Shown here in pieces: positions 7,988 through 53,113 of a DNA stretch of 64,000 bases. The DNA is from an uncultured Haloferula sp. (GTDB lineage Bacteria; Verrucomicrobiota; Verrucomicrobiia; Verrucomicrobiales; Akkermansiaceae): contig CBFGTS010000007.1 of NCBI GenBank assembly GCA_965652295.1, positions 32,001 through 96,000 of the forward strand, in the 5' to 3' direction. Below the pieces are notes generated by a model, which worked only from the letters and a program-made list of their open reading frames with translations, was not told the origin of the DNA and searched no databases. The translations under genes were made by a program, and so were the position numbers. The first letter of the stretch is position 1; every line of letters begins with the position of its first letter.

Positions 7988-8134
7988 GAGAAAATTGCGG
8001 TTCGCGCTCCAAGTCGGGTAATTTTTCCCGATGTGCAATTCAAAAATCGTTGAAATCGGGTCAAACTCACCCTGAGTTTCCCGGGTTGTTTTCCAAAGTT
8101 GACCGGTTTTCAGGCAAGTGTGCCTCTGGTGGGG

Positions 8135-9058
8135 CTATCGTTTCGGGAAAAGATGCTTCCATGCGGCAAAGGCCTCGCGGATCTCCTCGGCCTTGCGGGT
8201 GGGTGAGAGTTCCCAGGTGAGGGGGCAACCGGCGGGGAAGAAGGGCAGGAGTTGATGGTAGTCGAGTTCGCCGGTGAAGGGCACCCGGTGGTCGCGGGCA
8301 GGCCACTGGACGTCATGGACGTGGCCGCCGATGAGGTAGGGCTGCATTTTCTCCAGCCACTCGACGTGGTCGAGCAGGCCGAGGTTGTGCTTGAGCTGGA
8401 CGTGTCCGAAGTCGTGCCAATAGCCGACGTTCGGGTGGTCCTTGAAATGCTCTTGGAGGGCGACCATTTCGCGCTCGGTGGGAGTGTCCTCGAAGCGGGA
8501 TCGTGACTCGACGGCGAGCAGCAGCCCGAGCTCCTTCGCCTGCTCGGCGATTTGTTCGAGAGCGGCGATGGCGCGCTGATAGTAGAGGGGGCCGAGCTTC
8601 TCGCGCTTTTTGATGAAGGCGATGCGCTCTTTGGCGAATGCCGGGGTGTCACGTTGGCCCTCGGCGACCATCGCGGTGAGGCGTTTGGTCCACTTCTTGG
8701 TGCTGAGAGGCGCGGATCCCATGTGCAGGACGACGTAGCGGGCCTTGAACTCGGCGGCGAGTTCGAGGGTGCGCCGGGTCATGTCCATTGCCCGCTGGCG
8801 GTCGAAGGGGCGGTGGGAGGTGTATTCGTAGGCGTCGGGCGCATCGATCATCACCTCGACCGGGGAGGGGAAGTAGTTGTGCACGCCGAGGCAGGTGAAG
8901 CGGCCGTCCTCGAAGGCTTTCCTGATGCCCGGCAGCTTGGTCACGGTCATGCCGTGGGAGAGTTCGAGCTCGGAAAAACCGAGTTCGAGGATCTCGTCGA
9001 TCATGGCCTCGCCATCGGTGTGACGCGAGTTGTTCCAGCAGGTCGAGAAGGCGGGCAT
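8135..9058 (-). CDS. Sugar phosphate isomerase/epimerase family (xylose isomerase-like TIM barrel)
   Basis: VVLHMG, LAVES, WHDFGH, HVHD, DHRVPFTGELD, WE metal ligands. Confidence 0.85.
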   Translation of the reverse strand: MPAFSTCWNNSRHTDGEAMIDEILELGFSELELSHGMTVTKLPGIRKAFEDGRFTCLGVHNYFPSPVEVMIDAPDAYEYTSHRPFDRQRAMDMTRRTLELAAEFKARYVVLHMGSAPLSTKKWTKRLTAMVAEGQRDTPAFAKERIAFIKKREKLGPLYYQRAIAALEQIAEQAKELGLLLAVESRSRFEDTPTEREMVALQEHFKDHPNVGYWHDFGHVQLKHNLGLLDHVEWLEKMQPYLIGGHVHDVQWPARDHRVPFTGELDYHQLLPFFPAGCPLTWELSPTRKAEEIREAFAAWKHLFPKR

Positions 9059-9094
9059 GGGAAAGCAGGGCTTATGGGCCTAGAGGCGAGCCGG

Positions 9095-9760
9095 TCACGA
9101 GCCCGCTACAAGGAAGACGATCTCGCCCTTGGGAGGGTGGATCTGGAAGTGGGCGAAAAGTTCGGCGGCGGTGCCGCGGTGGTAGGTCTCGAACTTCTTG
9201 GTCAGCTCGCGGGCGACGCAACAACGGGCTTCCGGATGGCTGCCGGCGAGAAGTTCCAGGGTCGAGACGAGCCGGTGGGGCGACTCGAAGAAAAGCGTGG
9301 TGCCGTCCGTTTCCAGCGCGGTCTCCATGGCGGCGAGGCGCTTGCCTTTTTTCACCGAGAGGAAGCCGAGGAAATGGAAGGCATGGCAGGGAAATCCGGA
9401 GCCGATGAGCGCGGTGAGCACGGCGGAGGGGCCTGGTAGAACTTGGTAGGCGAGGTCCTCGGCGAGGCAGGCCTGGATCAGGCGGTAGCCGGGGTCGGAC
9501 ACGCCGGGCATGCCGGCATCGGAAATCACGGCGACGTTTTCCCCGGCCCGTGCGGCACTGACGATCTCGGGGATCCGTCGAGCTTCGTTGTGCTCGTGGA
9601 GGGAGACGAGCGGCTTACCGGTGATGCCGAGGTGGGCGAGGAGCGGGGCGGAGTGGCGGGTGTCCTCGCAGGCGATGCGGTCGGCGTTTTTCAGGACCTC
9701 GATGGCGCGCAGGGTGATATCATCGCGATTGCCGATCGGGGTGGGAACAAAGGAGATCAT
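9095..9760 (-). CDS. rsmI: 16S rRNA (cytidine1402-2'-O)-methyltransferase
   Basis: PTPIGNRDDITLRA, ACEDTRH, SDAGMPGVSDPG, FESPHR, RELTKKFE, KGE. Confidence 0.97.
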   Translation of the reverse strand: MISFVPTPIGNRDDITLRAIEVLKNADRIACEDTRHSAPLLAHLGITGKPLVSLHEHNEARRIPEIVSAARAGENVAVISDAGMPGVSDPGYRLIQACLAEDLAYQVLPGPSAVLTALIGSGFPCHAFHFLGFLSVKKGKRLAAMETALETDGTTLFFESPHRLVSTLELLAGSHPEARCCVARELTKKFETYHRGTAAELFAHFQIHPPKGEIVFLVAGS

Positions 9761-9799
9761 GAGATGCCCGGGCGGAGGCGGGTTTCGGCCCCGCACTTC

Positions 9800-10306
9800 T
9801 TAGTAGCCGTTGGCGAGGCGGGAGACCATGCCGTCGCTGGCGCGCTTGAGGGCGTCGGGCAGCGAGTTGTTGCGGGCGGTCTGGAGGTTGGAATCGACGA
9901 ACATCTTCGAGGAGCCCATCGAGGTCCCTGAGGCGAGGGTTTTGTTGGGATCCCCGGCATCGCGCAGGATCCAGGAGAGGGTGACTGTATTCTGGAGCTC
10001 CAGAGGGCGCAGTGTGTCGAGGCGGGCGGAGCGGATCTGGGTGTAGTCGATCTTGGAAATGGTGGCTTCCAGCACGGCATCGGCCGCGTCGCGGGTGGCG
10101 ATCCGGTAGGTGCCATCGAGAATGAAGGACTCGGTGGCGGCGGAGGTGGCGAGGGCCTCGGCGCGGGGATGAAGAGTGTCGTTGCGGAACATGGGCACCG
10201 CGATGGTGTGCACGTCCGCGAGCGCGGCAGGCTTGGTGCCGTCGATGCGGTAGCCGGCGCAGGCGGCGAGCGCGAGGGTCAGGAGCGGGGCGAGGAGGCG
10301 GATCAT
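9800..10306 (-). CDS. lptE: LPS assembly lipoprotein LptE family
   Basis: Lipobox LAAC followed by GY, IAVPMFRNDT, ADAVLEATI; adjacent to bamD. Confidence 0.75.
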   Translation of the reverse strand: MIRLLAPLLTLALAACAGYRIDGTKPAALADVHTIAVPMFRNDTLHPRAEALATSAATESFILDGTYRIATRDAADAVLEATISKIDYTQIRSARLDTLRPLELQNTVTLSWILRDAGDPNKTLASGTSMGSSKMFVDSNLQTARNNSLPDALKRASDGMVSRLANGY

Positions 10307-10315
10307 GAGAGGCGA

Positions 10316-11242
10316 TCAGTTTCCGCCAAGAGCGGCGAGACGGGCCTGGGCCTGGTCGTGCAGTTGCCCGGACTTGGCGCGGCGGATGACTTCCTGATAG
10401 TAGAATTTGGCCGAGTTGGTATCGCCTTTCTTTTCATAGAAGCGGGCGATGTCGAAGGTGTTCTGGAGGTCGCGTCCGCCGATGTTCGAGAGCAGCTGGC
10501 GGGCTTCGTCATTGCGTTTGTGCCCGGGGAACTGGCTCAGGTAATCGCGCAGCGCTTCCTCGGCGCGGTCGAGGTTCGCCTGGTCCTGGTTGCCTTCCTT
10601 CGCCTGCTTCAGCAGCACCTCGCCGATGCGGAACTGGGCCTCGGGGGCCTCCGGGTAGGCGGGGTATTCGAGCACGACCTTTCGGTAGGCGCTGACGGCC
10701 TCGCCGACCTTGTCGTCGCCGGCGTAGAGTTCTCCGATCTTGAAGGCGGCCTTGGCGGCGGTCGCGGAGCGCGGTGCGTTGCCGGCGACCTTTTGAAGCA
10801 TCTCGATGACCTTGTTGGTCGCCAGTCTCGACTTGAGGCCGAGGAAGCTGGATTTGATTTCGCCATCGGCGGCGGCGAAGGCCATCTCGGTCTGGCGCTT
10901 GAACGCCTCGCGATAAAGGCCGCTGCCCTGATAGCGGGAAATGAGGTCCTGATAGGCGTCGAAGGCATCGAGCGTTTCGCCGCTTTCATCGAGAAGCTTG
11001 GCCTGGCGGAAACGCGCGTCCGGCGCTTTGTCGGCGAGGGCGATCTTGTCGGCGATCTCGTCGTAGAGCTTGATCGCCTTCTTCGTTTTGCCGGCGTTTT
11101 CTGCAGCCTGGGCTTCGGCAAACAAGGCTTCGGCGCGTTCGTTGTTTCCGGAACCCGCACTCACCAGCGGCGGGAGGTCGGAATCGTTTCCGCAGGATGC
11201 CAGCAGAGCGGCGATGGAGAGAAGGGCAAGCCTCGGGCGCAT
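10316..11242 (-). CDS. bamD: Outer membrane protein assembly factor BamD-like TPR lipoprotein
   Basis: Lipobox LASC, TPR repeats, DQ...RA...YL.QFP and FDIARFYEK...SA.FYY motifs. Confidence 0.75.
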   Translation of the reverse strand: MRPRLALLSIAALLASCGNDSDLPPLVSAGSGNNERAEALFAEAQAAENAGKTKKAIKLYDEIADKIALADKAPDARFRQAKLLDESGETLDAFDAYQDLISRYQGSGLYREAFKRQTEMAFAAADGEIKSSFLGLKSRLATNKVIEMLQKVAGNAPRSATAAKAAFKIGELYAGDDKVGEAVSAYRKVVLEYPAYPEAPEAQFRIGEVLLKQAKEGNQDQANLDRAEEALRDYLSQFPGHKRNDEARQLLSNIGGRDLQNTFDIARFYEKKGDTNSAKFYYQEVIRRAKSGQLHDQAQARLAALGGN

Positions 11243-11285
11243 GCCGGGACGCTATAGAGACGAAGCGGGGGGCGGGAAGCGAAAA

Positions 11286-12086
11286 TCAGCCCCTTCCGAG
11301 CTCGCGGGAGCGTTCGGTGGCGGCGGTGACGGCCTCGATCAGGGCAGATCGCAGTCCGCCGGCTTCGAGTGCGGCAAGGCCGGCGATGGTGGTGCCGCCG
11401 GGCGAGGTGACCTGGTCCTTGAGCTGCCCGGGGTGGAGGCCGGTTTCCAGCACCATGGTGGCCGCACCGCGCAGGGTGCGGGCGGCGAGTTCCATCGCGA
11501 CATCCCGCGGCAGGCCGGCGCGCACGCCGCCGTCGGCGAGGGCCTCGATCATGAGGAAAACGAAGGCCGGACCGCTGCCGGAGAGGCCGGTCACTGCATC
11601 GAGCAGGGGTTCGGGAAGGAGATGGGTGCTGCCGACCGCGCCGAGCAGGGACTCGGTCCTTTCCCGGTCGGTGGCGCTGACGTTGGCCGAGCAGGCGAAG
11701 CCGGCGGCACCTTCGCCCACCAGCGCGGGGGTGTTCGGCATGCAGCGGACGAGCCGCCAGTTGGCCGGAGCGTGGGTGGCCAGCCATTCGAGCGTGAGCC
11801 CGGCTGCCACGGAAATCAGGAGTGCTTCGGGCGGGGCGGCTTGCGTGAGCGCGGCGAGCGCGGCGGCGGCTTGCTGGGGCTTGGTGCAGAGGAGTACGAC
11901 ATCGCAGCCCGCCAAGTCGTTGATCGAGTCCACGGCCTTTCCTCCGGTGGCTTCGGCGAAAGCATCGCGGGCTGCGGGGTAGGGATCGTATCCGAGCAGC
12001 GCGTCCGCCTTGACCGCCCTGGCGCGGATCGCTCCCGCGACGAGGGCCGTGCCCATTTTTCCACAGCCGATGACTCCAAGCTTCAT
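11286..12086 (-). CDS. proC: Pyrroline-5-carboxylate reductase
   Basis: GVIGCGKMG, RCMPNTP, TGLSGSGPAF, VTSPGGTTIAG; start re-assigned to MKLGV. Confidence 0.97.
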   Translation of the reverse strand: MKLGVIGCGKMGTALVAGAIRARAVKADALLGYDPYPAARDAFAEATGGKAVDSINDLAGCDVVLLCTKPQQAAAALAALTQAAPPEALLISVAAGLTLEWLATHAPANWRLVRCMPNTPALVGEGAAGFACSANVSATDRERTESLLGAVGSTHLLPEPLLDAVTGLSGSGPAFVFLMIEALADGGVRAGLPRDVAMELAARTLRGAATMVLETGLHPGQLKDQVTSPGGTTIAGLAALEAGGLRSALIEAVTAATERSRELGRG

Positions 12087-12172
12087 GCGCCGGAGGTTAG
12101 AGCGGGTCCGCCGCGCGGGGCGAGTGTTCATTTTGCTTGGAGGGGCGGGCGGCTGCCAGCATCGTCCCGCGC

Positions 12173-13855
12173 ATGCGATATGGATGGATGGCATTGCTGG
12201 CGGCGGGAGCCGTGATGGCCGAGGAAGTTCCACCGGTGGACCGGCCGGTACCGCCCATGCCGGCGGTGAAGGAGCTGATCGCCGCGAAGATCGAGGCTCT
12301 CCCGGCACCCTCGCCGCCGCCGGTGAAGGGCGGAGTGGGAATGGCGATCACGGCCGCCACCGACGAGGTCCAGCAATCCGTGCGCGACGGATTGACCTGT
12401 CTGCACGCGGGCTGGGATTTCGAGGCCTACCGGCACTTCGTGCAGGCGCTGAAGGGGGACGCCGACTGCCTGATGGCGAACTGGGGCGTCGGGCTGGCGC
12501 TGCTTCACGGCAGCGACGATCTGGCGAAGGAGCGCGAAGCGGCGCTGAACCGCATGCTGGGCTTGGTCGACCGCGGCGTCGGCACCGATCTGGAACACCG
12601 CTACGTGTTCGGCCTGGCGACGCTGATCCAGGAAGGACCGCAGGCGGCGGCCGGCGTTTTCGCCCAGGCGGCGGAAGAGTATCCGAACGATCCACAGCTC
12701 GTCCTGTTGGAGTCGCTGCTCGGCCGCGGTGGATTCGACATGATGGGCAATCCCACGCCTGATCAGGAGCGCGCGGAGAAACGGATGCGCGAACTCATCG
12801 CCAAGCACCCCGGGCTTTCCTATCTGAAATACGCCTTGCTGGCGATGCGGGCGGAGGCTCCGGACCTTGCGGGCGATCAGGAAATGGTTCGCGAGTTGGC
12901 GGGTGAGGCCCCGGGCTTCGCACCGTATTTCCACCTGCTGGGGCATTACGAGTGGCGGCTGGGAAATCCGGGCGCGGCCCAGGCGGCTTTCGGCTGGGCC
13001 GGCGACGCCTATGGCGCATGGATGCGTGAAGCAGGCTTGGAGCCGCTCGATTGTCCGGGCTGGACGAAGGCGGAGGCCTACCGGGCCGTGGCACTGGCCA
13101 GCAAGGGGGACTACGAAAGCGCGCTCGCCGCGGCACAAGCCGTGGCGGCGATCGAGGTTCCGCCGGCGAAGGCATCGTCCGATGGCGCGCGGATGCTGTT
13201 GTGGGAGGCCAAAACCCTCCCGGCCCGGATCTACCTCCGCCGCAATGGCGCGGGTGATCTGACGGCGGCGAAAAACAGCCTTCCTTCGGCCGAGGATGCG
13301 AAAGGTCTCAGCGAGGAGACGTTGGCGGTGTGGTCATTCCAGGCGCATTCGACGACGGTCGGCACGCGGCTGGCGATCGAGGCCGGTGAGTCGGAGGCCG
13401 CGCGGCTTTTGATCGAAGACCTCGCCCGGCTTGGCTCGAATTTCGTGAAAACCCGCGGGGTCGCCGCCGCGCAGGGAGAGCAATCCCACTGGCTGCGGTG
13501 TTTCCAAGCTCTCGAGGTGATGACCAGCGAGCTGAACGGCCTGCTGGCGATGCACGGTCCGGAAGGCGGACGTGGCTCAGCCTACAATTGGTTTCTTTCC
13601 GCCCGCGACCGGCAGCGCCGCGCTTCGTTGATGATGCCGCCGTCGGTGCTGCTTCCAATGGGCACGCGCCTCGCCGACTACCTCGCTGCGGAAGGCGAAT
13701 GGGACAAGGCGCTCGACGCGCTGGAAACGGACCTCAAGAGCTATCCGAACGACTACGAACTGCTGCGCCGCCTCGAAACCGTCGCCGCCAAAGCCGGGAA
13801 AAAGGACCGGGCGGAGGAGGCGACCGCCGCGCTCGAGCAGCTCAAATCCGAATAA
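12173..13855 (+). CDS. Secreted tetratricopeptide-repeat protein
   Basis: Signal peptide; GLTCLHAGWDFEAYRHF..A...D.DC.MA.WG.. TPR-like N-terminus; all-helical. Confidence 0.75.
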   Translation: MRYGWMALLAAGAVMAEEVPPVDRPVPPMPAVKELIAAKIEALPAPSPPPVKGGVGMAITAATDEVQQSVRDGLTCLHAGWDFEAYRHFVQALKGDADCLMANWGVGLALLHGSDDLAKEREAALNRMLGLVDRGVGTDLEHRYVFGLATLIQEGPQAAAGVFAQAAEEYPNDPQLVLLESLLGRGGFDMMGNPTPDQERAEKRMRELIAKHPGLSYLKYALLAMRAEAPDLAGDQEMVRELAGEAPGFAPYFHLLGHYEWRLGNPGAAQAAFGWAGDAYGAWMREAGLEPLDCPGWTKAEAYRAVALASKGDYESALAAAQAVAAIEVPPAKASSDGARMLLWEAKTLPARIYLRRNGAGDLTAAKNSLPSAEDAKGLSEETLAVWSFQAHSTTVGTRLAIEAGESEAARLLIEDLARLGSNFVKTRGVAAAQGEQSHWLRCFQALEVMTSELNGLLAMHGPEGGRGSAYNWFLSARDRQRRASLMMPPSVLLPMGTRLADYLAAEGEWDKALDALETDLKSYPNDYELLRRLETVAAKAGKKDRAEEATAALEQLKSE

Positions 13856-17301: not shown

Positions 17302-17308
17302 CCCCCAT

Positions 17309-17525: not shown

Positions 17526-17792
17526 TCAATCGTCACCGGATGCTTGGATTAATACGTCTGCGAGTCGCAGATCCAGAGCCCGACACCAGCGCAACAAAAC
17601 CACTAAGCCCGGCTGCGACAGTCCGCGCTCCGCACGAGACAGGTAGGAATAGGCGATGCCCATCTTCCCGTTGAGGTCCCGTAGCGTTAGGCCTCTCTCG
17701 CGGCGTTTCTCCCGAAGAATCGAAACGATCCCAAGCAAAACGTCCATATCCGGATCACCAGATGGATTAGCATCATGCTTGAGCGAAGACAT
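17526..17792 (-). CDS. XRE-family helix-turn-helix transcriptional regulator
   Basis: LREKRRERGLTLRDL..KMGIAYSYLSRAERG..QP. Confidence 0.88.
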   Translation of the reverse strand: MSSLKHDANPSGDPDMDVLLGIVSILREKRRERGLTLRDLNGKMGIAYSYLSRAERGLSQPGLVVLLRWCRALDLRLADVLIQASGDD

Positions 17793-18022
17793 CCCTTCAT
17801 CCTGAAGGGGACGGGAGCGGGATGTAGGAATTTTACTCTTGTTCCCTATGTCGCACAGCCTAGGCTTTCAGCCATACCTGCTGCCGTGATCATGATTCTC
17901 TCTCGCTTTCCTTCCGGGATCGCTCCCCCCCCTGAGGGTGCACCCGCTCGATCCCCAGAGCGGTCGGCGTGCGCCCTCTCCTTCTGTCCTTGGTCGATTT
18001 TCGTCTGGATTGGGATCAGCGG

Positions 18023-18277
18023 CTACTTCCGCTCCAAGACGAAGGCCAATTCTTCCAAAAACTGCTGGGGCGTCACCTTGCACGCTTTGCAGAAGCAGAT
18101 CCACTCGATCAGATCAATCCGCCGCTGCCCGCGTAAAATGTCGCTCACGGTGGATTGGCTCACGTCCATCTTCTTGGCGAGCTGCTGCTGGGTCAGCCCC
18201 GCATCCGCCCGCACCCGGGCCATCACTTTCAACACGGATTCCTGATCGGCGGAATAGATCGACTTTGCTGCCACCAT
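18023..18277 (-). CDS. XRE-family helix-turn-helix transcriptional regulator
   Basis: KSIYS...RADAGLTQQQLAKKMDVSQSTVSDILRGQRRIDLIE. Confidence 0.9.
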   Translation of the reverse strand: MVAAKSIYSADQESVLKVMARVRADAGLTQQQLAKKMDVSQSTVSDILRGQRRIDLIEWICFCKACKVTPQQFLEELAFVLERK

Positions 18278-18478
18278 CGAAAACTGCCAAACTTGGTGAA
18301 TTATCGAAAATTCTGGCAAATTATTGGAATTATCGTTATTCGTTCTGACGTCTCCGTATCTTCACAAGAATTTCTTCATAGATGATCGATACCCGACGCA
18401 ACCTCTCAAAACTCCGCTTTGTCATGAAGAGCCTCCTTTCGCTCTCGTCCTGCTTGCGGGGCTTTCCCCTCCTTCCCT

Positions 18479-19315
18479 ATGAGATTCCCATTCCTCCCTA
18501 CCTCCGCCTTCTTGCTGGCGCTGGCCTTGCTCCCCTCCCGCGCTGCTGAACCCATCCCCGCTGCCGGTCCGCTCCAAGTGGCCGATGGCGTCCCGGATCC
18601 CTCTCTCATCCACTTCACTCCTCCGGCTCCTCCTCCGCCCGCTCCGGACATCGAGGTCGAGGCCCGCAGCGTCCTCCAAGCCGGCTCCCACCGCTTGGAC
18701 CTCCTCCGCGGTGCCCCCTCCGAGCTCCCCGACCTGCCCGAGCCGGTTGCTGCCGAGGCCCGCATCGGGCTCCCGTCACTCTCCGAGCATCCTACCACCG
18801 CGACCGTCACCCTCGGCCTCTCGGTGGTCATCTACGATCACCAACTCTCCCACCTCCGTTGGCGCGACCCGCGCAATGGCGAAGTCTTCGAGGCATGGTG
18901 CGCCTGGGACTGGGAACTTGTCTCGCCCATCGGCCAACTCACCGGCGACCGATTCGATTGCATCATCCTCTCCACCCCTGAGATCGTCATCACCACCCAC
19001 CCGGGGCGGCCGCAGGCTGCCATTCCTTCCCATCCACAACTCGCTCCCGGCACCTTCCAGCTGGTGTCCGGTTCCGCCGATTCTCCCCTTGGAGCGGCTT
19101 TCCTCGAAGCCTACCGGCGTCACCTTTCCGCGAACCGTCCGCAGCTCGAAGCCGTGCTGGCTGCCCGCCGCCAAGCCGCGGCCGATGCCGCCGCCTGGCG
19201 CGAGGCCAACCCCGGAACCGTGCGCGATTCGACCGTCTGGCTGCGCCCCCACCGCGGCAGCCGCTACCTCAAGGCAGCGGGAACCACCGGCGAAAGAAAG
19301 GAGGCCGGGAAATGA
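18479..19315 (+). CDS. Secreted hypothetical protein, partner of the downstream repeat protein
   Basis: Signal peptide, Pro-rich linker; stop overlaps the next ATG (ATGA). Confidence 0.8.
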   Translation: MRFPFLPTSAFLLALALLPSRAAEPIPAAGPLQVADGVPDPSLIHFTPPAPPPPAPDIEVEARSVLQAGSHRLDLLRGAPSELPDLPEPVAAEARIGLPSLSEHPTTATVTLGLSVVIYDHQLSHLRWRDPRNGEVFEAWCAWDWELVSPIGQLTGDRFDCIILSTPEIVITTHPGRPQAAIPSHPQLAPGTFQLVSGSADSPLGAAFLEAYRRHLSANRPQLEAVLAARRQAAADAAAWREANPGTVRDSTVWLRPHRGSRYLKAAGTTGERKEAGK

Positions 19316-21774
19316 AAACCCTGCTCTTTTGCCTGATCTTCGTTCTGGGCACATTTTTTCCTGCCGTCGGGCAGGATGCCGGTCAAAACTCCGAGATCCT
19401 CGTGGTTTCCCAAGACAAATTCCTGCGCTTCCACGGCCACGCCGGGCGCACCTACTTCATCCAGGCTTCCGATCCACTAAGCCACCTCCGGCAGTGGTTG
19501 TGGATGCCCGTGATCGAGACCGGCAACGATTCGGACATCAGCTACGAAGTCGGCGGGACCGACCCCAAGGGATTTTTCCGCCTCGTTTACAGCGACGTCC
19601 CGAAGCCCGCCGGCGTGAGCCTTGAGGATTGGGATCTCGACGGCGACGGGCTGAGCAACTGGGACGAAATCACCCTTCACGGCACCTATCCCGACAAGCC
19701 GGACACCGACGGCGACGGCATGACCGACGGTTGGGAGGTGACTCACGACCTCGATCCTCAAAATCCCAACGACGCCTTCGACGATCCCGACGGCGACGGA
19801 ACGGATAATCGGGAGGAACACGATCAGCAAACCGATCCCGGAAACCAAGCGGACTTTCCAACTCAAATCTGGTCGGTGACCGCCGCGGCTAGCGGGAGTT
19901 CTTCGGTGTGGACTTCTGAGATTAAAAAGCACACCCGCAAGCGCAATTGGAACGAATCGACTTATAGTGAACCTCAAGAGGGTTCCGGGCATCTTGCGGT
20001 GGCGGAGCTCAAAGCCCTTGTTGAAGGTCTGACACTTCCAGAGACGCTAGCGGAAGCGAAGGCCGAGCCCGATTACATTCATTACAACGAAAGCGGAGCT
20101 TCGGCACATGGACATTTTCACCAATCCGCGAGCTCTTCCGAAGCCAGACAGGGAAACCACACAGTTACTCGTGTCTGGGTGCGCATGCCTGCGAAAGCTG
20201 AGCAGCAAACGCGCCAATTCATCAAGGTGACATCCCGGAACCATCCGGACGCCGACACTGTGGTGGAGTCGGGAACCGTCACCGTGACCGTTCCTGCCAA
20301 CCAAACGGAATCAGAGTACGTCGATTTGACGTGCGACAACATCATGGTGTCCGGGAAGGACGTGATTACTGACGTTGAGCTCCTGCCGGTGGAGTTATAC
20401 AGCGACTTGAACAACGACGGACAGTTGACGAGTGCCGACAGCGGGCTTGTCGGTAAAGCCTATGCCAGCGGTGTTAGCGAGGACGAGAAGGACAAGGGGA
20501 CCGAATTCATGTTCGCCAATGACCAGCTCTCGAATGGTGCATGGGATAAGGAAGACAGCACTACACCAGGTAAGCCCGCAGGCACCGACGATGACGATGC
20601 CGAGGAACTGCACATCAATCCCGGTATCACCGAAGGCGAGGTGTGGCTCGACCATCCGGCGATTACCGGGTTGAAGTTCTATCGGGACAAAAAATGCACA
20701 CAGCAAATCAATATTTCGACGAGTAGTCATTTTGACCTCACTCCTGACAACCCGTTTCCCGATAAAGTGTTCATGCGAGCGGAGAGCGTAAACTTCACCG
20801 ATACCAGTAACCCTCAGGTTGAGGGCGACCTGAAGCTAATAATTAAACCTGATGGCGGTGATGCCAACGGCATCGAAGCCACCAAGATGAGGCTCACTGT
20901 CATTAAGGATTTGGGATCCCAAAAATACTTCCACGGCGTTCGAGATTATATTTTTGAGAATAATACGAAGACTTTCACGCATCACAAAAATTACGGAACT
21001 TCAACCCGGTATCGAATTGTGGCAATGCGCGAAGAATCCACAGAAATGTTTGGGTTGGATACCTACGACCATGTGTCTGATGAACCTCGTCTCAAGGGTA
21101 TCAATGCTGTAAAAGATAATTATTTTTCCGACGTAATTATTAACGGCAACCAGTGTTTCTTTAGTGGTGCTTACTTTTTTGGGAGTATGACAGATCGCTG
21201 CGATGGGCGGCTGTGTGTCGGCAGGCAGATACTTCGCCCTCCTTCTGATGACACGCACAATCCGAACTTGGGAGGCCCAGGAGCGCGCTACGTCGGAAAT
21301 TCTATGGGAGAGCCTGAGATAGTGGACGGGGTATTAGCCATCCCGAGTCATTTCACCTTTGCGACCGGTCAGGTTCCTGAGGGCGTGCCGGCGACTTCAG
21401 ATCACGGCATCGGAGGCTTGGCTGCGAAATATGACCGCGCTGAATTGCAACAAAGTGAGAACCAGGCGATCGGCCGGGCGTTTGTCACGGATCCCGGAAA
21501 AGGAGTGGTGTTTACTGCGACAACATATGTTGGAAACCCAGGGAAGGCTATTTCTCTCGCGGCGGACGCGCACAGATCCGGCGTTCAACCTTTGAGTGGT
21601 GGGGCTGCGGGTACCTGGGAGCTGTTATTTCTGGATGGTTCGTCCTCAGTTGGCTTAGTGCTTGCCAGTCCGAACGGGGATCAACAGATCGTGATCAAGG
21701 GGAGTAAGCACGACGGGAATTTTTACTACATAAATACTTATCTTCTATTTGAGTGTAAGCGGCCGAGAAATTAG
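19312..21774 (+). CDS. Secreted modular protein with DxDGDG Ca-binding repeats and a variable C-terminal domain (putative polymorphic toxin/effector)
   Basis: Signal peptide; G..GRTYFIQ.S..L..W...FFRL domain; three D.DGDG repeats; LLPVE..DLNNDG junction; AT-richer 3' half. Confidence 0.8.
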   Translation: MKTLLFCLIFVLGTFFPAVGQDAGQNSEILVVSQDKFLRFHGHAGRTYFIQASDPLSHLRQWLWMPVIETGNDSDISYEVGGTDPKGFFRLVYSDVPKPAGVSLEDWDLDGDGLSNWDEITLHGTYPDKPDTDGDGMTDGWEVTHDLDPQNPNDAFDDPDGDGTDNREEHDQQTDPGNQADFPTQIWSVTAAASGSSSVWTSEIKKHTRKRNWNESTYSEPQEGSGHLAVAELKALVEGLTLPETLAEAKAEPDYIHYNESGASAHGHFHQSASSSEARQGNHTVTRVWVRMPAKAEQQTRQFIKVTSRNHPDADTVVESGTVTVTVPANQTESEYVDLTCDNIMVSGKDVITDVELLPVELYSDLNNDGQLTSADSGLVGKAYASGVSEDEKDKGTEFMFANDQLSNGAWDKEDSTTPGKPAGTDDDDAEELHINPGITEGEVWLDHPAITGLKFYRDKKCTQQINISTSSHFDLTPDNPFPDKVFMRAESVNFTDTSNPQVEGDLKLIIKPDGGDANGIEATKMRLTVIKDLGSQKYFHGVRDYIFENNTKTFTHHKNYGTSTRYRIVAMREESTEMFGLDTYDHVSDEPRLKGINAVKDNYFSDVIINGNQCFFSGAYFFGSMTDRCDGRLCVGRQILRPPSDDTHNPNLGGPGARYVGNSMGEPEIVDGVLAIPSHFTFATGQVPEGVPATSDHGIGGLAAKYDRAELQQSENQAIGRAFVTDPGKGVVFTATTYVGNPGKAISLAADAHRSGVQPLSGGAAGTWELLFLDGSSSVGLVLASPNGDQQIVIKGSKHDGNFYYINTYLLFECKRPRN

Positions 21775-21786
21775 GTTTTAATATAC

Positions 21787-22773
21787 ATGAAAATTCATAT
21801 TCGAGTTTTGTTGGGTTTCGCAATTGGTGCAGTGCTTCTGACGGGATGTGATCAAAAAAAAGCATCCCCAGGCGCAGAGAAAAAAAGCGACGTTCCTATT
21901 TCATCAGAGGCACTCCCTGACTTACTCGTGTTGGACGACAAGAAATTGGATCGCGACCGTGAAGGGGCTGAAGTGAGGGGTCCTAAGCAGAAACATTCGG
22001 AAATTATTTCTTCTCCAAATCAGTCGAACCCAATTGGGGATCGGCTAAGGAGTCACCTGGAAGGCCTCCGTCCAGATGAATCAGAGTATGATTATGTTAT
22101 AAATCAACTTTGGAACAAGAGTCTTTCTCAAATGTCAAATGAAGTGCTCGAAAGTTCGCATGAAGAAGATGTATACAAGGGTGTGATGCTGCCTAAGGAA
22201 TTAAAAGGAATGGAGCCTTCAAATAGATGGGTAGACACTCCCGAAGCCATGCTAGGTGGTGTAGCATTTATGGCTGTCGCTGCGAATGATGGTCTGCTGC
22301 TTAGCCTTGCCCAGCAAGCTTCGGATACGTTGCCTCCCACAAAGGCGGACTTGGCTATTTTTGAGGCTTTAAACGATGCGATAAAAGAGCTTGGATCCAC
22401 TAGAACGATTGCGTCGTTTGAAAATTGGAAACCTTTAGCGAGAGCTCGCAATCCATTGTATCGGCTGCTTGCTCTAAGAGCTGCAATACGTTCGACCTCG
22501 CAGGCTGCCTCCGACCTGTCGTCAGAGGACCCGAGCTACAACCGTGTCGATGGGTCTGCCAAGCTCGACTTCTACCTAGGCTTCCTTGACGAAAAAGATC
22601 CACTCATATTGGGCGAGGCAATTTCTGCCGTTGCAACCGTACCAACCCCCGAAGCCCGGCAAGCAATCGAGAAGTTCAAGGCGACGCAGCAACAACGTGG
22701 AAATGCCTCGCTCGTGGAGGCTGCGACAGTAGCTCTTCGCACCCAGGAATTGATCTCCAAAAGCTCGCGTTGA
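21787..22773 (+). CDS. Lipoprotein with HEAT-like helices (putative cognate immunity protein)
   Basis: Lipobox LTGC; starts 12 bp after the upstream stop; AT-rich codon usage; C-terminal DPLILGEAISAVATVPTPEARQAI. Confidence 0.75.
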   Translation: MKIHIRVLLGFAIGAVLLTGCDQKKASPGAEKKSDVPISSEALPDLLVLDDKKLDRDREGAEVRGPKQKHSEIISSPNQSNPIGDRLRSHLEGLRPDESEYDYVINQLWNKSLSQMSNEVLESSHEEDVYKGVMLPKELKGMEPSNRWVDTPEAMLGGVAFMAVAANDGLLLSLAQQASDTLPPTKADLAIFEALNDAIKELGSTRTIASFENWKPLARARNPLYRLLALRAAIRSTSQAASDLSSEDPSYNRVDGSAKLDFYLGFLDEKDPLILGEAISAVATVPTPEARQAIEKFKATQQQRGNASLVEAATVALRTQELISKSSR

Positions 22774-22784
22774 TTTAGAGGGTC

Positions 22785-22861
22785 ATGGAGATACTCAACA
22801 AGATCGACGTGGTCACACGGCAAGTGAATACGCCATCAGGATGTAGCTCGAGCGGGCGGAT
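22785..22861 (+). pseudogene. Probable frameshifted gene remnant
   Basis: MEILNKIDVVTRQVNT, then AIRM*LERAD in a shifted frame; resembles the N-terminus ..K.D.A.RQL.TAIR.F.E..D of a hypothetical protein family (recalled, not searched). Confidence 0.35.
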
Positions 22862-23004
22862 GGTTCAATTTGACCAGTCACTGCTCAGGATGGAGGTTTT
22901 GCCCACCTAGCCAAGGCCCCATTCAATGGTGCCCGAACCCTCATTTAAATTCGCTGCTGATCCCCGGTTCGGCTCAATTTAGTAACTCAAGCCCCATAGA
23001 CATC

Positions 23005-23451
23005 ATGACGGTCAAGCGTATGGACAACGTCGGCATCGTGGTCGAAGACCTCGATGCCGCCATTGAGTTTTTCGCCGCGCTGGGGCTTGAACTCGAGGGG
23101 CGAGCTCCAATCGAGGGGGACTGGGCTGACGGCGTCACAGGGCTTCGTGACATGTGCGTCGAAATCGCCATGATGCGGACTCCGGACGGCCACGGTAGGA
23201 TTGAGATTTCCCGATTCATCGCCCCGCCGGTGATCTCCGATCACCGCGCTGCCCCGGTGAACGCTCTCGGCTACCTGCGGGTCATGTTCAATGTCGAGGA
23301 TATGGACGATACGCTCGACCGCCTCGGGAAGTACGGCGTGGAGATCGTTGGCAGGGTGGTCCGGTATGAAGATGCCTATAAGATTTGCTACATCCGAGGG
23401 CCTGAGGGAATCCTGATTGGACTCGCGCAAGATCTCGGACAGGAAAGTTGA
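23005..23451 (+). CDS. VOC/glyoxalase family protein
   Basis: MDNVGIVVEDLDAAIEFF..LG, RTPDGHGRIE, YIRGPEGILI. Confidence 0.93.
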   Translation: MTVKRMDNVGIVVEDLDAAIEFFAALGLELEGRAPIEGDWADGVTGLRDMCVEIAMMRTPDGHGRIEISRFIAPPVISDHRAAPVNALGYLRVMFNVEDMDDTLDRLGKYGVEIVGRVVRYEDAYKICYIRGPEGILIGLAQDLGQES

Positions 23452-23510: not shown

Positions 23511-26237
23511 TTATGCCGGCCGGACGGTCTCGGCCATGGCGGAGAGGTGAGGCTGCTTCCCCCCGAGGAAGGCGGCGACGCGGGCTGCGGTGACATCAGG
23601 CGCGGCGCAGGTGGCGGCGTAGTCGATTTCCAGGGTGGGCAGGCGGTGGCGCTTGAGGAAAGCGTGGGCGGAGAGCAGTTGGTCGTGGAACGCCCGGCTC
23701 AGGGCGAGAGTGTCCGGGTCGCGCCCTCCGAGCATGCGGCGTTGCGAATCGATCACTTGATCGACGGGGCGGCGCATGAGGATGACGCGGTAGTGGATGG
23801 GTTCGCCGTGGGCGTCGCGCACGGGAAGGAAGGGCAGGAGGGGGGCGACGATTTTGACCGCATGCCCGCGGGCTTCGGGTAGCCAGCGGTTGTCCTTCGA
23901 GAGATCGAGCGTGGCGCGGTGCTCAAGGTAGCCGTGCGGGTTGGAGGCGTCGGCGGCGCGGGCGTGGTCGGTGAAAACCGGGACACCGGCGGCGGCGAGC
24001 ATCTGCATCATCATGGAGGTGCCGGAGCGGGGAAGGCCGCTGACGACGGTGATGATCTGTTCGGGCGGAGCTTCGGTTTCGATGGGAAAATCGAAATTCG
24101 GAGTCGAGGGAAGCGGTGCCGGCGCGGCGGGTTCGACCCGTTGTTTTTCGAGGGAGCGGAGCTTCTGCCGGGCGGCGTGGGCGAGGGAGGAGAAGGAGGC
24201 GGAAAGGCCGCTGTCGCCGCGATGGCGGAGCTGGATTTCCGAGAGCATCCGGTAGGCCGGGGCGTGCGAGGAGTTCATCCGGATGGTGACCAGAAAGGCC
24301 TGTTCGGCGCGGTCGATGTGGCTGGCGCGGTAGCAGGCCATGCCGAGGAGGAAGTGCACCAGAGGTTGCTCGAAAACGAGGCGGAGCGACTCCGTGGCGG
24401 CCTCGATGGCGGCCTCGAAATCGCGACGTCCGAGGCGGGCGCGTGCGATGCCTTTCCATGCCGAAGGGTTGTCGGGGTCGATTTCGAGGACCTCTCGGAA
24501 GATGGCTTCCGCTTCATTCCATTCGCGGAGGCGGAGCAGCATATCGGCCTCGGTGTTCCGGGCATCGGGCCGCGAGCGGTAGGCGGGGGAGGTGGCACGC
24601 AGCCGGGCGAGGGCGCGGCGGTAGTCGCCAGCGGAGAAGTCACCGAAGGCCATGAAGTGGCGCAGGGCGTCGCGGTCGACATAGGCGCGGGTTTCGCGGC
24701 GTGCCGGATTTTGCGGATCCGGCTCTCTTCGGACGCGTCGCGCGTCGCGCAGGCGGTCGCGGACCAGTTCGCGGACGAGACGTTTCACCTCGGCGGGGTG
24801 GCCGATGGCGTGGTGGCAGGCGGCGAGGCGGACACCGAAGCGGGGCTCGCCGGGCCACTCTTGGCGCAGGCGTTCCAGCAGCGGCCGGGCGTCGGCATAG
24901 CGCCCGCAGTCCATGTAGCTCTGGGCGAGGTTGTAGGAGAGTTCGCGGGTGGTTTTTTCCGCCTCGGCACTGGCATCGGCGTCGGGCGGGGAAATGTAGC
25001 CGAGGGCGACGAGTTGCTCGATCGCCGCCCGCGTGTCGGTGGGGCTGGCGGTGGTGCCGACGGGGTGGCTGCCGTCCTCGCCTTCGAGGGCTTCCCAGCT
25101 CGGGATCGAGCGGACGGGTGGCGCGGCTTCGGCGAGTTCCGGGATGATTTTTCCATCCATGTCCTGTCCGACGGGAAGTCCGAAGAGGGCGAGGATGCTC
25201 GGGCAAATGTCGAGGATGCCGGCTCCCATGACCTTGCGGCCTGCCGGGATGCCCGGGCCGCGTGCGGCGAAAATCCCGAAGCGGCGGTGTTCGCTCGCCG
25301 GCCCGGCGGGTTCGATGGGGAGAGCGGTCGGCAACTGCGAGCCGGACTGGAAGCCGTGGTCGGACACGAGCAGTACGGTGGCGTCCTCGCCAGCGAGCTG
25401 GAGCAACGTGCCGAGCATCATGTCGTGGTAGCGGTAGGCTGCCTCGACGACGCCGTGATAGAGTTCGAAGTCGCGTTCCGGGACGTCCGCGCGGTGGGGC
25501 GGGTGGAACTTCATGAAGCCGTGGCAGAAGTGGTCGATCGCATCGAGGTAAACGGCCGCGAAGTCCCATTCCTCGTTTTGCATGAGCCCGGTGGTCACGC
25601 CGTGGAGCGTGGTGCACTCGGCCAGGATGCGGGCGATGGCTTGCAGGCGGATGTCCGACGCTTGATCGATCTCCGCCGCCCGGGGAACAAAGGGTAGCAG
25701 GTGCGAGGCGTCGAGCTGGTGCGGGTGGATGCGGAGGTTGGCGAGCGTGTTGGCGAGGTGGGGCGGATGCACTGCGCCGGGCGGCACGGGCCAGTCCTGA
25801 TCGACCGCTGCGGTGGTGAGCTGGAACTGGTTGGAGACCATGCAGCCATCGATCGGCTCGGCGGGATGGCTCGGCCACCAGCCGACGACGAGCGAACGCA
25901 GCCCGTGGAGCTGGAGCATGTTCCAGAGGGCGCGGCAGCGGCGCGAAAGTGAGGTCACCGGGCGCACGCCGCCGCTCAGCGGGTCGAGTTCCGTGAAGCC
26001 GTGGATGCCATGTTTGAAAGGACGCTTCCCCGTGGCGATGCTTGTCCAGAGCATCGGCGAAAGCGCCGGCTGGATGGTAGCCAAGCTGCCGGAGACGCCT
26101 TCCTGGAGAAAGCGGGCGAGGTGGGGCATTTTCCCCGTCGCGACCAGCGGGTGGATGATCTGCCAGTCGGCGGCATCCCAGCCGATCAGGAGCACTTTCC
26201 GTCGGCCGGGGGTGGCGCCCTGCGGCTCAGGCGGCAT
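23511..26237 (-). CDS. Alkaline-phosphatase-superfamily phosphodiesterase / TPR / sulfotransferase fusion protein
   Basis: LIGWDAADW, SPMLWTSIATG, DHFCH, SDHG; central TPRs; PAPS-binding SGLPRSGTSMMM; start re-assigned to MPPEP. Confidence 0.9.
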   Translation of the reverse strand: MPPEPQGATPGRRKVLLIGWDAADWQIIHPLVATGKMPHLARFLQEGVSGSLATIQPALSPMLWTSIATGKRPFKHGIHGFTELDPLSGGVRPVTSLSRRCRALWNMLQLHGLRSLVVGWWPSHPAEPIDGCMVSNQFQLTTAAVDQDWPVPPGAVHPPHLANTLANLRIHPHQLDASHLLPFVPRAAEIDQASDIRLQAIARILAECTTLHGVTTGLMQNEEWDFAAVYLDAIDHFCHGFMKFHPPHRADVPERDFELYHGVVEAAYRYHDMMLGTLLQLAGEDATVLLVSDHGFQSGSQLPTALPIEPAGPASEHRRFGIFAARGPGIPAGRKVMGAGILDICPSILALFGLPVGQDMDGKIIPELAEAAPPVRSIPSWEALEGEDGSHPVGTTASPTDTRAAIEQLVALGYISPPDADASAEAEKTTRELSYNLAQSYMDCGRYADARPLLERLRQEWPGEPRFGVRLAACHHAIGHPAEVKRLVRELVRDRLRDARRVRREPDPQNPARRETRAYVDRDALRHFMAFGDFSAGDYRRALARLRATSPAYRSRPDARNTEADMLLRLREWNEAEAIFREVLEIDPDNPSAWKGIARARLGRRDFEAAIEAATESLRLVFEQPLVHFLLGMACYRASHIDRAEQAFLVTIRMNSSHAPAYRMLSEIQLRHRGDSGLSASFSSLAHAARQKLRSLEKQRVEPAAPAPLPSTPNFDFPIETEAPPEQIITVVSGLPRSGTSMMMQMLAAAGVPVFTDHARAADASNPHGYLEHRATLDLSKDNRWLPEARGHAVKIVAPLLPFLPVRDAHGEPIHYRVILMRRPVDQVIDSQRRMLGGRDPDTLALSRAFHDQLLSAHAFLKRHRLPTLEIDYAATCAAPDVTAARVAAFLGGKQPHLSAMAETVRPA

Positions 26238-26856
26238 CGCGGTGGCGACGGCGGTGGAAGGTCGAAATGCCGGCGGCACCGAGGGCCAGCAGGGCCAGTC
26301 CGGAAGGTTCGGGGACGGCACCGACTTCGAGCGTCGCGCCGCTGTCGTCGTAAGCCCATTCGAGGATGCGGGCGTCGGCGAGCACCGTGTTGGAGACGGA
26401 AATACGAGCCCAGCCGTAGACCGGATTACCTCCGTTCACATCGTCGGAGGTGAAGGTGAAGGCGAACAGGTTGTCGCTGGAAAACTGGGCGTTGTTGGCG
26501 AGGAAGACGGAGCCTGACTGGTATCCGAAGATGCGGTCCGAACCGGAGAATGCACCGGGCGTGTCGCCGATTTTGACTGTTGGCGCGCTGCTTTCACGAA
26601 AGAAGCCGAAGAGATCGCCGGAGGCCATGGAGAGCGGTCCGATGCCGCGGACGAAGCCGTAGGCGCTGGAGGCGAACTCGGTGCCGATGGTCAGCCCGAC
26701 TTCCTGGTTTCCGGCCGGGGTGATGTCACCGGTGCTGGTGACGCTCAGCCCGTCCATGTGAATGATCGCGCCGTGGGCGGAGGGGGCGAGGGTTCCGGCG
26801 GCGAGGAGGAGTTTTGCGGTCCGGTCGTAGAAGGAGGAACGAGGCTGGGTAGGCAT
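26227..26856 (-). CDS. PEP-CTERM sorting domain protein (YGW..AY type)
   Basis: Signal peptide; YGWARI...WAYDDSG; VPEP-hydrophobic-RRRHR. Confidence 0.9.
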   Translation of the reverse strand: MPTQPRSSFYDRTAKLLLAAGTLAPSAHGAIIHMDGLSVTSTGDITPAGNQEVGLTIGTEFASSAYGFVRGIGPLSMASGDLFGFFRESSAPTVKIGDTPGAFSGSDRIFGYQSGSVFLANNAQFSSDNLFAFTFTSDDVNGGNPVYGWARISVSNTVLADARILEWAYDDSGATLEVGAVPEPSGLALLALGAAGISTFHRRRHRDAA

Positions 26857-53038: not shown

Positions 53039-53113
53039 TCCGGTGTAGCTCAGCGGTAGAGCGGGTGGCTGTTAACCACTAGGTCGTAGGTTCGAACCCT
53101 ACCGCCGGAGCCA
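53039..53113 (+). tRNA. tRNA-Asn(GTT)
   Basis: TCCGGTG acceptor stem, D-arm GCTCAGCGGTAGAGC, anticodon loop CT-GTT-AA, T-loop GGTTCGAACC, encoded CCA. Confidence 0.98.

Follow-up and report, generated by a model that had tools for sequence, protein, structure and literature searches.

The locus described here lies at positions 17526 to 22773 of a 64,000-nucleotide stretch of the genome of an uncultured Haloferula sp. (Akkermansiaceae, Verrucomicrobiota; assembly GCA_965652295.1, contig CBFGTS010000007.1, positions 32,001 to 96,000), hereafter the window. It encodes a candidate polymorphic effector-immunity system composed of a secreted partner protein, a secreted effector of 820 aa and a lipoprotein, with two divergent XRE-family regulator genes upstream. 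A first-pass annotation, made without database searches, had proposed an undescribed toxin-immunity system of this gene content, and all five genes were found in the open reading frame (ORF) list where it placed them and on the same strands.

The three forward-strand genes are tightly packed. The partner gene (18479..19315, +) encodes a protein of 278 aa that has a Sec signal peptide, stretches rich in proline and an alpha+beta core containing one long helix (AlphaFold2 model, predicted local distance difference test (pLDDT) 84). The stop of the partner gene and the start of the effector gene (19312..21774, +) share a 4-bp ATGA overlap at 19312-19315, with AAGGAGG just 5' of it, and the ATG of the lipoprotein gene (21787..22773, +) lies 12 nt past the TAG stop of the effector gene. 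The lipoprotein has 328 aa and a lipobox, LLTGC, at residues 17-21, and is the candidate immunity protein or inhibitor; the coupling, the short gap and the lipoprotein nature read from the letters alone were thus all seen.

The effector is modular. A signal peptide of about residues 1-21 (19312..19374, +; MKTLLFCLIFVLGTFFPAVGQ in translation, cleavage site judged by eye) is followed by a conserved N-domain of about residues 25-105 (19384..19626, +), the leader common to all relatives, and by three bacterial TSP3 repeats of the calcium-binding type at residues 106-186 (19627..19869, +; Pfam TSP3_bac, E 4.4e-6), which hold the D.DGDG motifs at residues 108-113, 131-136 and 158-163. The middle domain (residues 187-361, 19870..20394, +) ends in the junction motif LLPVE (residues 357-361, 20380-20394, +), behind which LYSDLNNDG follows. 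Beyond the junction lies the exchangeable tail, consisting of an immunoglobulin (Ig)-like, weakly PAD-like pre-domain (residues 363 to ~543, 20398..20940, +; AlphaFold2 model and VIA structure comparison) and a NAGPA/DUF2233-fold catalytic domain (residues ~544-820, 20941..21771, +; VIA and Foldseek), whose DGSSS loop at residues 775-779 (21634-21648, +) aligns weakly with the DGGGS of NAGPA. The first-pass annotation had described an exchangeable AT-rich C-terminal domain; exchangeability held, and the single domain turned out to be two parts, a pre-domain of ~180 residues and an enzyme fold.

The GC content decreases stepwise along the operon from 0.68 to 0.49. The flanks have 0.66 and 0.68 and the partner gene 0.68; within the effector gene, the values are 0.59 for residues 1-186, 0.56 for 187-362, 0.52 for 363-543 and 0.50 for 544-820, and the lipoprotein gene has 0.49. 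The AT enrichment claimed to run through the effector gene into the lipoprotein gene is borne out by these values.

At E <= 1, Pfam revealed nothing for the partner or the lipoprotein and only TSP3_bac for the effector. The NCBIfam scan gave nothing above threshold and three sub-threshold matches, all on the TSP3 region of the effector; the match to the pilus-like Amuc_1099 family, whose 28.5 bits fall short of the cut-off of 50, and those to MtsD lie on TSP3 only and were rejected as repeat matches. Both scans agree with the claimed absence of Rhs/YD, FHA, LXG, PAAR, VgrG and Hint motifs from the locus.

Conserved leader, partner protein and swapped C-termini

The same genome contains a second locus (L011) on contig C8. 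Its partner is 46% identical to that of the window, and its large protein shows 61% identity with effector residues 25-361. Their similarity ends at the junction, LLPVE in the window protein and LRAIE in its paralogue, with no alignment beyond it; the gene 3' of the large protein is translationally coupled and has a hydrophobic signal-like start, and it is unrelated to the window lipoprotein. This second locus (G000:C8:170000-188000, positions 6806-12027) encodes a 273-aa partner, the large protein with a weak DUF2515-like tail (E 0.004) and, coupled to it, a protein of 326 aa that has a signal sequence and, C-terminally, a hydrophobic stretch, followed by an SRPBCC/Polyketide_cyc2 protein.

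With effector residues 1-362 as query, 22 of 101 family genomes matched at E <= 1e-10 (11 of 20 genera, own genome included), many of them only through the N-domain and the TSP3 repeats. Thirteen loci were examined: a partner homologue stands directly upstream of the large gene in nine and a partial one, at a contig end, in a tenth, and neither the tail (residues 363-820) nor the lipoprotein found a match in any of the 13. The N-domain has invariant columns in the leader alignment (A4), and the middle domain is common to six proteins (those of the window, L011, L042, L043, L046 and L048), in which homology ends at [LF][LF]P[VI]x. The C-termini of the relatives matched Amidase_3 (E 1.7e-30), in one case Abhydrolase_6 (6.7e-5), or nothing known; weak DUF2515 matches were found in the tails of two relatives and of the C8 paralogue, and a literature search on DUF2515 returned nothing. 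Each large gene with enough downstream sequence (the listed loci except the contig-truncated L044 and the short L053) is closely trailed by a gene of 200-376 aa, the products having mostly a signal-like N-terminus and the genes mostly a lower GC. A conserved partner and N-terminus with unrelated C-termini past LLPV(E/x) and unrelated downstream genes, as the first-pass annotation had expected, were therefore found in the paralogue and the relatives, and homologues aligning in full length with a constant tail and a constant downstream gene were not seen. An ESM Atlas search with residues 20-362 gave only TSP3-bearing hypothetical clusters.

In independent soil metagenomes, a contig from run X6 follows the window as far as 20394, where the LLPVE codons end, and then has 255 unlike letters; another contig reads through 20394. 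The X6 contig is a hint of tail exchange at the strain level. The lower summed metagenome depth over 20505-22907 (runs X3, X4, X6 and X7) was left unused, as contig depth cannot rank parts of genes.

The partner proved a good marker of the family. Its alignment contains a near-invariant W-L-R-P-H-R-G-S-R-Y-L motif toward the C-terminus (from nt 19244). In the window, RPHRGSRYL occupies partner residues 256-264 (19244-19270), close to the C-terminus. A word-indexed search found 23 relatives, every one hypothetical. Scanning one genome per species, 185,579 species in all, for RPHRGSRY gave 101 stretches, of which 98 were confirmed as partner relatives and 80 loci were kept; a partner ORF is present in 78 of these 80 named loci. 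All 80 are titled Verrucomicrobiota, distributed over Akkermansiaceae, Luteolibacter, Haloferula, Verrucomicrobiaceae, Prosthecobacter and unclassified members. Among 401 genomes sampled across the phylum, the partner profile matched 12 (9 of 184 genera), all from the same class or closer. Several copies may stand in one genome, with five partner-profile matches in genome G007 and six loci in one metagenome-assembled genome. The suggested Verrucomicrobia-specific Sec route is borne out insofar as all kept loci are from Verrucomicrobiota and both partner and effector carry Sec-type signal peptides. An ESM Atlas search with the partner gave no usable match, and PDB profile searches with the partner, tail and leader alignments gave nothing meaningful.

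We then compared tails and downstream genes over the named loci. A complete large gene is present in 63, and in 60 of these a further gene follows within 150 nt. Together with the window and the paralogue, this makes 65 loci, 62 of them with a downstream gene, and 1891 locus pairs. By BLAST, the large proteins of 60 of the 65 loci group into one cluster on their first 200 residues; on the last 350 residues, there are 28 clusters, 14 of them singletons. Among these loci, which are kin and whose counts are not independent, the downstream proteins are related in 40/77 pairs with related tails and in 0/1814 pairs with unrelated tails. The pattern is clear-cut, although the kinship of the loci makes the Fisher p-value of this comparison an overstatement. 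A conserved N-terminal region is thus joined to unrelated C-termini with a downstream gene that covaries with them, which is the arrangement that defines polymorphic toxins.

Some details of this comparison concern single clusters. The weakly related tail clusters L092/L099, L051/L052 and L042/L043 have downstream genes that are unrelated by BLAST. The DUF2515-like tails in L046 and L049 have a related downstream family of their own, and L049 contains two tandem copies (59% identical) of the gene behind this tail at 11161-12731, which suggests a resemblance to duplicated immunity genes. Amidase_3 was detected in 3 of 63 scanned tails, and 53 of the 63 showed no family beyond TSP3. The downstream gene in L098 (4696-5415) encodes an ankyrin-repeat protein and that in L103 (8921-9397) a DUF4279 protein; ankyrin immunity proteins (Imm-ank) are listed in the available part of PMC3482391.

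A part of the family is organised as split loci, in which the partner is followed by a small signal-peptide homologue of the N-domain (174-321 aa) and then by a very large signal-peptide protein. Nine newly fetched split loci have complete large genes, and in five of them the product is of Rhs type (RHS_repeat E 4e-37 to 1e-76), in most cases with DUF6531 and Transglut_core domains; two further Rhs cases occur in the named locus set. The partner/N-domain cassette thus precedes Rhs proteins elsewhere, which links the system to classical polymorphic toxins; the claim that Rhs is lacking stands for the window protein and fails for the system as a whole. In L053, an ORF at 9862-10734 (oriented coordinates), ~1.4 kb behind a short N-domain ORF, starts like the end of an Rhs core (YDP..G.W...DP.G), and a 60-aa hydrophobic protein follows; the two possibly represent an Rhs tip left as an orphan beside its immunity gene, the likeness to the Rhs core being judged by eye.

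A NAGPA-fold tail and its lipoprotein

Effector residues 363-820 matched 183 cluster representatives, 152 of them at E <= 1e-10. Among the matches listed, those over the full tail extend to the C-terminal end of their proteins, which are ~450 to 2930 aa long; some others match in the pre-domain part alone, over the first ~220 tail residues, and have different C-termini beyond. The N-terminal parts of 28 long relatives contain TSP3, FG-GAP, Laminin_G_3, RCC1, CHB_HEX_C and Big_7 domains. Across the phylum, the tail was found in 4 of 401 genomes, and the best match, 67% identical, is in another family. This distant match and the low GC point to a transfer of tail and lipoprotein as a pair.

The AlphaFold2 model of the tail, built from a 36-row alignment, reached a pLDDT of 92.3 and a predicted template modelling score (pTM) of 0.91. 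The closest structure was the DUF2233 protein 3ohg (Foldseek E 3.9e-8; VIA Z 19.2, root-mean-square deviation (rmsd) 3.4, 229 aligned), accompanied by NAGPA catalytic domains with Foldseek E of about 5e-7 to 2e-6; 6pku_A matched positions 190-454 of the model with VIA Z 18.1 (rmsd 2.8, 208 aligned). The next VIA tier consisted of Ig-like domains of PAD proteins (Z 7.4) on positions 1-195. Sequence identity to the NAGPA/DUF2233 structures is 11-14%. The DGGGS sequence is described as the critical motif of NAGPA in the available part of PMC13474241. In the tail family, D413 is invariant and G414 and S417 are kept in at least 90% of the alignment rows; in effector numbering, the three are residues 775, 776 and 779. 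The only match to the Pfam NAGPA model PF09992 in the genome lies away from the locus, at C4:9737-10231.

The lipoprotein family counts 34 relatives, none with a Pfam family; according to its source, one of them is from Prosthecobacter debontii. In three of four other loci with the same tail, a lipoprotein homologue stands directly downstream of it (44%, 26% and 26% identity), and the tails are there carried on unrelated N-termini, in proteins of 3004, 2637 and 568 aa.

We predicted the complex of the tail with lipoprotein residues 70-328, together with three controls. The interface score ipSAE was 0.85, 0.83 and 0.86, and the best of the three controls scored 0.00; the mark applied to this score is reached by 116/157 solved complexes and 2/215 mismatched pairs, counts that apply only roughly, because the alignments supplied here were our own. 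Between runs, at least 86% of the contacts are the same, and the chain modelled with the tail has a pLDDT of at least 87. A PDB sequence profile search found no relative of the tail, so it is improbable that the score reflects a structure seen in training. The confident part of the interface is confined to the NAGPA fold, with tail residues 415-416 of the DGSSS loop and, next to the conserved N249/N251 and H438/Y443, residues 252/254 and 436-443 taking part. The model supports a putative binding of the lipoprotein to the active-site face of the NAGPA-fold domain.

Regulatory genes and surroundings of the locus

The two XRE-family helix-turn-helix (HTH) genes encode proteins of 88 aa (17526..17792, -; Pfam HTH_3, E 1.9e-10) and 98 aa (18023..18319, -; HTH_3, E 1.1e-11). 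The pair had been proposed as part of the system; two divergent HTH_3 genes are indeed there, but they are an occasional accessory. Of 70 named loci, nine have divergent XRE homologues upstream of the partner; XRE1 homologues occur in seven, and the Rhs-type loci L174 and L176 among the nine have XRE2 homologues with 74% and 70% identity. In the first upstream scan, one of nine loci had XRE homologues, and the place of these genes in the core set was rejected on these counts. Divergent homologues also occur at the earlier-fetched L043, L092, L093 and L100. XRE1 is probably a local regulator. At 18284-18335, a 23-nt direct repeat occurs twice, at a distance of 29 nt and with 74% likeness, over the start of XRE2 and the intergenic region; it may be an operator or a chance finding. 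The repeats found near the XRE genes were all short and weak. Promoter-like sites (4 against 2.7 +/- 1.8 expected) and terminator-like sites (3 against 5.9 expected) were not informative.

No integrase, tRNA or flanking repeat was found at the locus, the only tRNA of the window being located at 53039. In two related loci, the gene directly upstream of the partner is an HNH_3/NUMOD4 endonuclease-like gene in L047 (6742-7119, -) and a DUF5681 gene in L048 (6030-6518, -), which suggests links to mobile elements. At the right edge of the low-GC stretch of the window lies a Glyoxalase/VOC-family gene (22870-23451, E 7.4e-10), and an ORF of 936 aa (23511-26321, -) adjoins the island in GC-rich, host-like sequence. 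Many metagenome contigs start matching at ~22995-23004 with unlike sequence before this point, and two short loose ends were found at 17303; these breaks may be the borders of the island.

Interpretation and comparison with known systems

We consider it likely that the locus is one copy of a Sec-exported polymorphic effector-immunity system of Verrucomicrobiota. The toxin-immunity reading of the first-pass annotation gains its support from the swapping of tails on one leader and from the downstream covariation (40/77 against 0/1814 pairs); signs that a tail may be toxic are indirect, namely the enzyme fold of this one and the peptidoglycan-amidase tails of sister loci. In such a system, the partner and the 820-aa protein would both be exported via Sec, and the N-domain, the calcium-binding TSP3 repeats and the middle domain would form a constant scaffold for delivery or presentation, which might act with the partner as MafA serves the export of MafB. 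The part past LLPVE would be exchangeable cargo, here the Ig-like pre-domain and the NAGPA/DUF2233-fold enzyme, which may attack a competitor's envelope by cleavage of a sugar-1-phosphate bond (phosphodiester-linked sugar). The lipoprotein, anchored in the periplasm of the producer, would bind the active-site face of the enzyme and so shield the producer and its kin, and the divergent XRE proteins would probably set the expression.

Several observations weigh against this reading. Downstream relatedness was not detected in 37 of the 77 tail-related pairs, which may reflect divergence, shared pre-domains or real exceptions, and the kinship of the compared loci makes all these counts dependent on one another. 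In the fourth locus with the same tail (L060), no lipoprotein homologue was found. The 63 scanned tails contain no classical small nuclease, deaminase or ADP-ribosyltransferase toxin domain, and the 28 scanned long tail relatives no Rhs, PAAR, LXG or VgrG; the tail relatives sit on giant adhesin-like proteins, which would also fit surface enzymes. For the enzyme, PF09992 does not match the tail at E <= 1, the alignment of DGSSS with the DGGGS of three canonical NAGPA proteins by hhalign is weak (E 9e-4, probability 23%), and both middle glycines of DGGGS are replaced in the effector loop, which makes the activity of the tail uncertain. The partner fold has no match in PDB (Foldseek best E 0.13; VIA wide best Z 3.8); this lack does not make the fold new.

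The most substantial alternative is a secreted or surface carbohydrate-active enzyme used for foraging or for remodelling the own envelope, with the leader as an adhesin or anchor scaffold and the lipoprotein as a chaperone or latency inhibitor. In fold, the tail matches glycosidases that act on phosphodiester-linked sugars, its relatives occur on giant lectin- or adhesin-like proteins (Laminin_G_3, FG-GAP, CHB_HEX_C, Big_7), TSP3 repeats are common in verrucomicrobial surface proteins, and no classical toxin domain was met among the 63 tails. However, 28 unrelated tail clusters stand on one leader with the next gene swapped pairwise, the same cassette is linked to Rhs proteins, and relatives carry peptidoglycan-amidase tails; the distribution is patchy with low GC, the catalytic loop lies within the predicted interface, L049 has the candidate immunity gene in two tandem copies, and a one-to-one cognate binding protein is unusual for a foraging enzyme. 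We therefore regard this alternative as unlikely.

It is still less probable that the effector is a toxin against protist grazers, fungi or Gram-positive walls (for example the linkage units of teichoic acids), from which the lipoprotein would protect the producer only during export. GlcNAc-1-phosphodiesters, such as those of eukaryotic glycoproteins, are the substrates of NAGPA-type enzymes (PMC13474241, in its available part), the available part of PMC12419801 predicts a role in predator-prey or interspecific conflict for NAGPA domains in Bacillota proteins, and the metagenome run labels place the host in soil and rhizosphere. A covarying periplasmic or lipoprotein partner, though, most simply means that the target is also present in the producer, and the Amidase_3 tails in sister loci point to bacterial peptidoglycan. 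That the locus would be decaying cargo of a mobile element, its gene order devoid of joint function, is very improbable: the low GC of the island, its place among housekeeping genes and the XRE genes on its left border, as well as the HNH/NUMOD4 and DUF5681 genes adjoining two related loci, would suit it, but all frames are intact and translationally coupled, the same order is kept in 60/63 loci with a complete large gene, the tail and partner models are of high confidence, and integrase, tRNA and flanking repeat are lacking at the locus.

Taking the locus as a polymorphic effector-immunity system, its closest functional analogue is MafA-MafB-MafI of Neisseria, in which the outer-membrane MafA, encoded beside mafB, is required for MafB secretion (PMC7738311, available part). 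The two systems share the order of an exported partner, a signal-peptide toxin with a conserved N-terminus and a polymorphic C-terminus, and immunity, and in both several copies per genome are possible, as far as the available part of that paper describes Maf. They differ in that the effector lacks DUF1020/MAFB-N (Pfam, E <= 1), the window partner has a plain signal peptide without lipobox, the leader of the window type has TSP3 repeats, and the tails are large enzymes of envelope type with exported immunity proteins. No homology was detected, the partner being without Pfam, NCBIfam (E <= 1) or PDB matches, which is an indirect measure and not a direct comparison with MafA. Moreover, all 80 kept loci of the window system are verrucomicrobial; the BLAST survey of Maf lists Proteobacteria and one Planctomycetes hit, with Verrucomicrobia unmentioned in the available part of PMC7738311.

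Sec-dependent polymorphic toxins are an established class, and the Sec route is the commonest one in the survey of PMC3482391, which, in its available part, also lists Rhs proteins with a transglutaminase-like domain under the Sec/type II secretion system (T2SS) route. The signal peptide, the leader and pre-toxin domains, the variable C-terminus and the adjacent immunity gene of that route, as given there, are all similar to the locus in the window. Table 1 of the survey, however, gives no signature neighbour gene for the Sec route, whereas the present system has a conserved partner gene; its available text contains no TSP3, thrombospondin or DUF2233, and Imm65 as the sole lipoprotein immunity family. 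The window set is defined, unlike the Sec route in the available part of that survey, by the conserved partner and a lineage-specific leader. The claim of an undescribed system has to be narrowed accordingly, with Sec-dependent polymorphic toxins (PMC3482391) and partner-dependent MafA/MafB export (PMC7738311) both known from the available parts of these papers. Our literature search on polymorphic and Rhs toxins of Verrucomicrobia, with supplements outside its range, found no description of the partner or the leader.

With the Rhs/YD systems, the locus shares the partner and N-domain cassette, which elsewhere sits directly 5' of signal-peptide Rhs proteins; the window effector itself has no RHS repeat, and its tail is joined straight to the leader and not placed in an Rhs shell. 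It differs from contact-dependent inhibition (CDI; type V secretion system, T5SS) and from type VI and type VII secretion system (T6SS, T7SS) effectors in having no TpsA secretion domain, PAAR/VgrG or LXG (Pfam/NCBIfam, E <= 1). The catalytic domain resembles NAGPA and DUF2233 (6pku, 3ohg) in fold and in the Asp, first Gly and Ser of the DGGGS loop, and differs in being C-terminal on a modular secreted protein, paired with a lipoprotein and provided with the loop DGSSS. NAGPA domains of large Bacillota proteins (prok-TelC combinations) are predicted for conflict in the available part of PMC12419801; these proteins are likewise large, extracellular and diversifying, with a predicted envelope attack. 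As that part describes them, they vary binding domains round a fixed enzyme core and are mentioned there with no immunity partner, whereas the window system swaps the enzyme together with its cognate downstream gene.

We might speculate further, with considerable doubt, that the partner and N-domain are an outer-membrane export or presentation route found only in Verrucomicrobiota, an independent counterpart of MafA/MafB that carries both Rhs toxins and fused envelope enzymes. The window cargo would then be the first antibacterial effector of NAGPA fold, cutting an envelope sugar-1-phosphate such as an undecaprenyl-pyrophosphate-linked sugar, with its active site plugged by the lipoprotein.

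What is new here, next to the Sec-dependent polymorphic toxins already known, is the lineage-specific leader and partner set, the candidate NAGPA-fold effector and its cognate lipoprotein; a NAGPA domain as a swapped, immunity-paired tail is not so noted in the available part of PMC12419801, and this would be a possible new biochemical use of the fold. Verrucomicrobiota are abundant in soil, water and guts, and little is known of their competition with other bacteria. The family is easily searched, as dozens of cargo types can be recognised by one leader domain and by one partner that carries an invariant motif, and it would extend the leader and neighbour-gene signatures by which polymorphic toxins are found. 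It yields a catalogue of candidate envelope-active enzymes, each with a candidate cognate inhibitor, and in the partner a candidate dedicated export factor for comparison with MafA.

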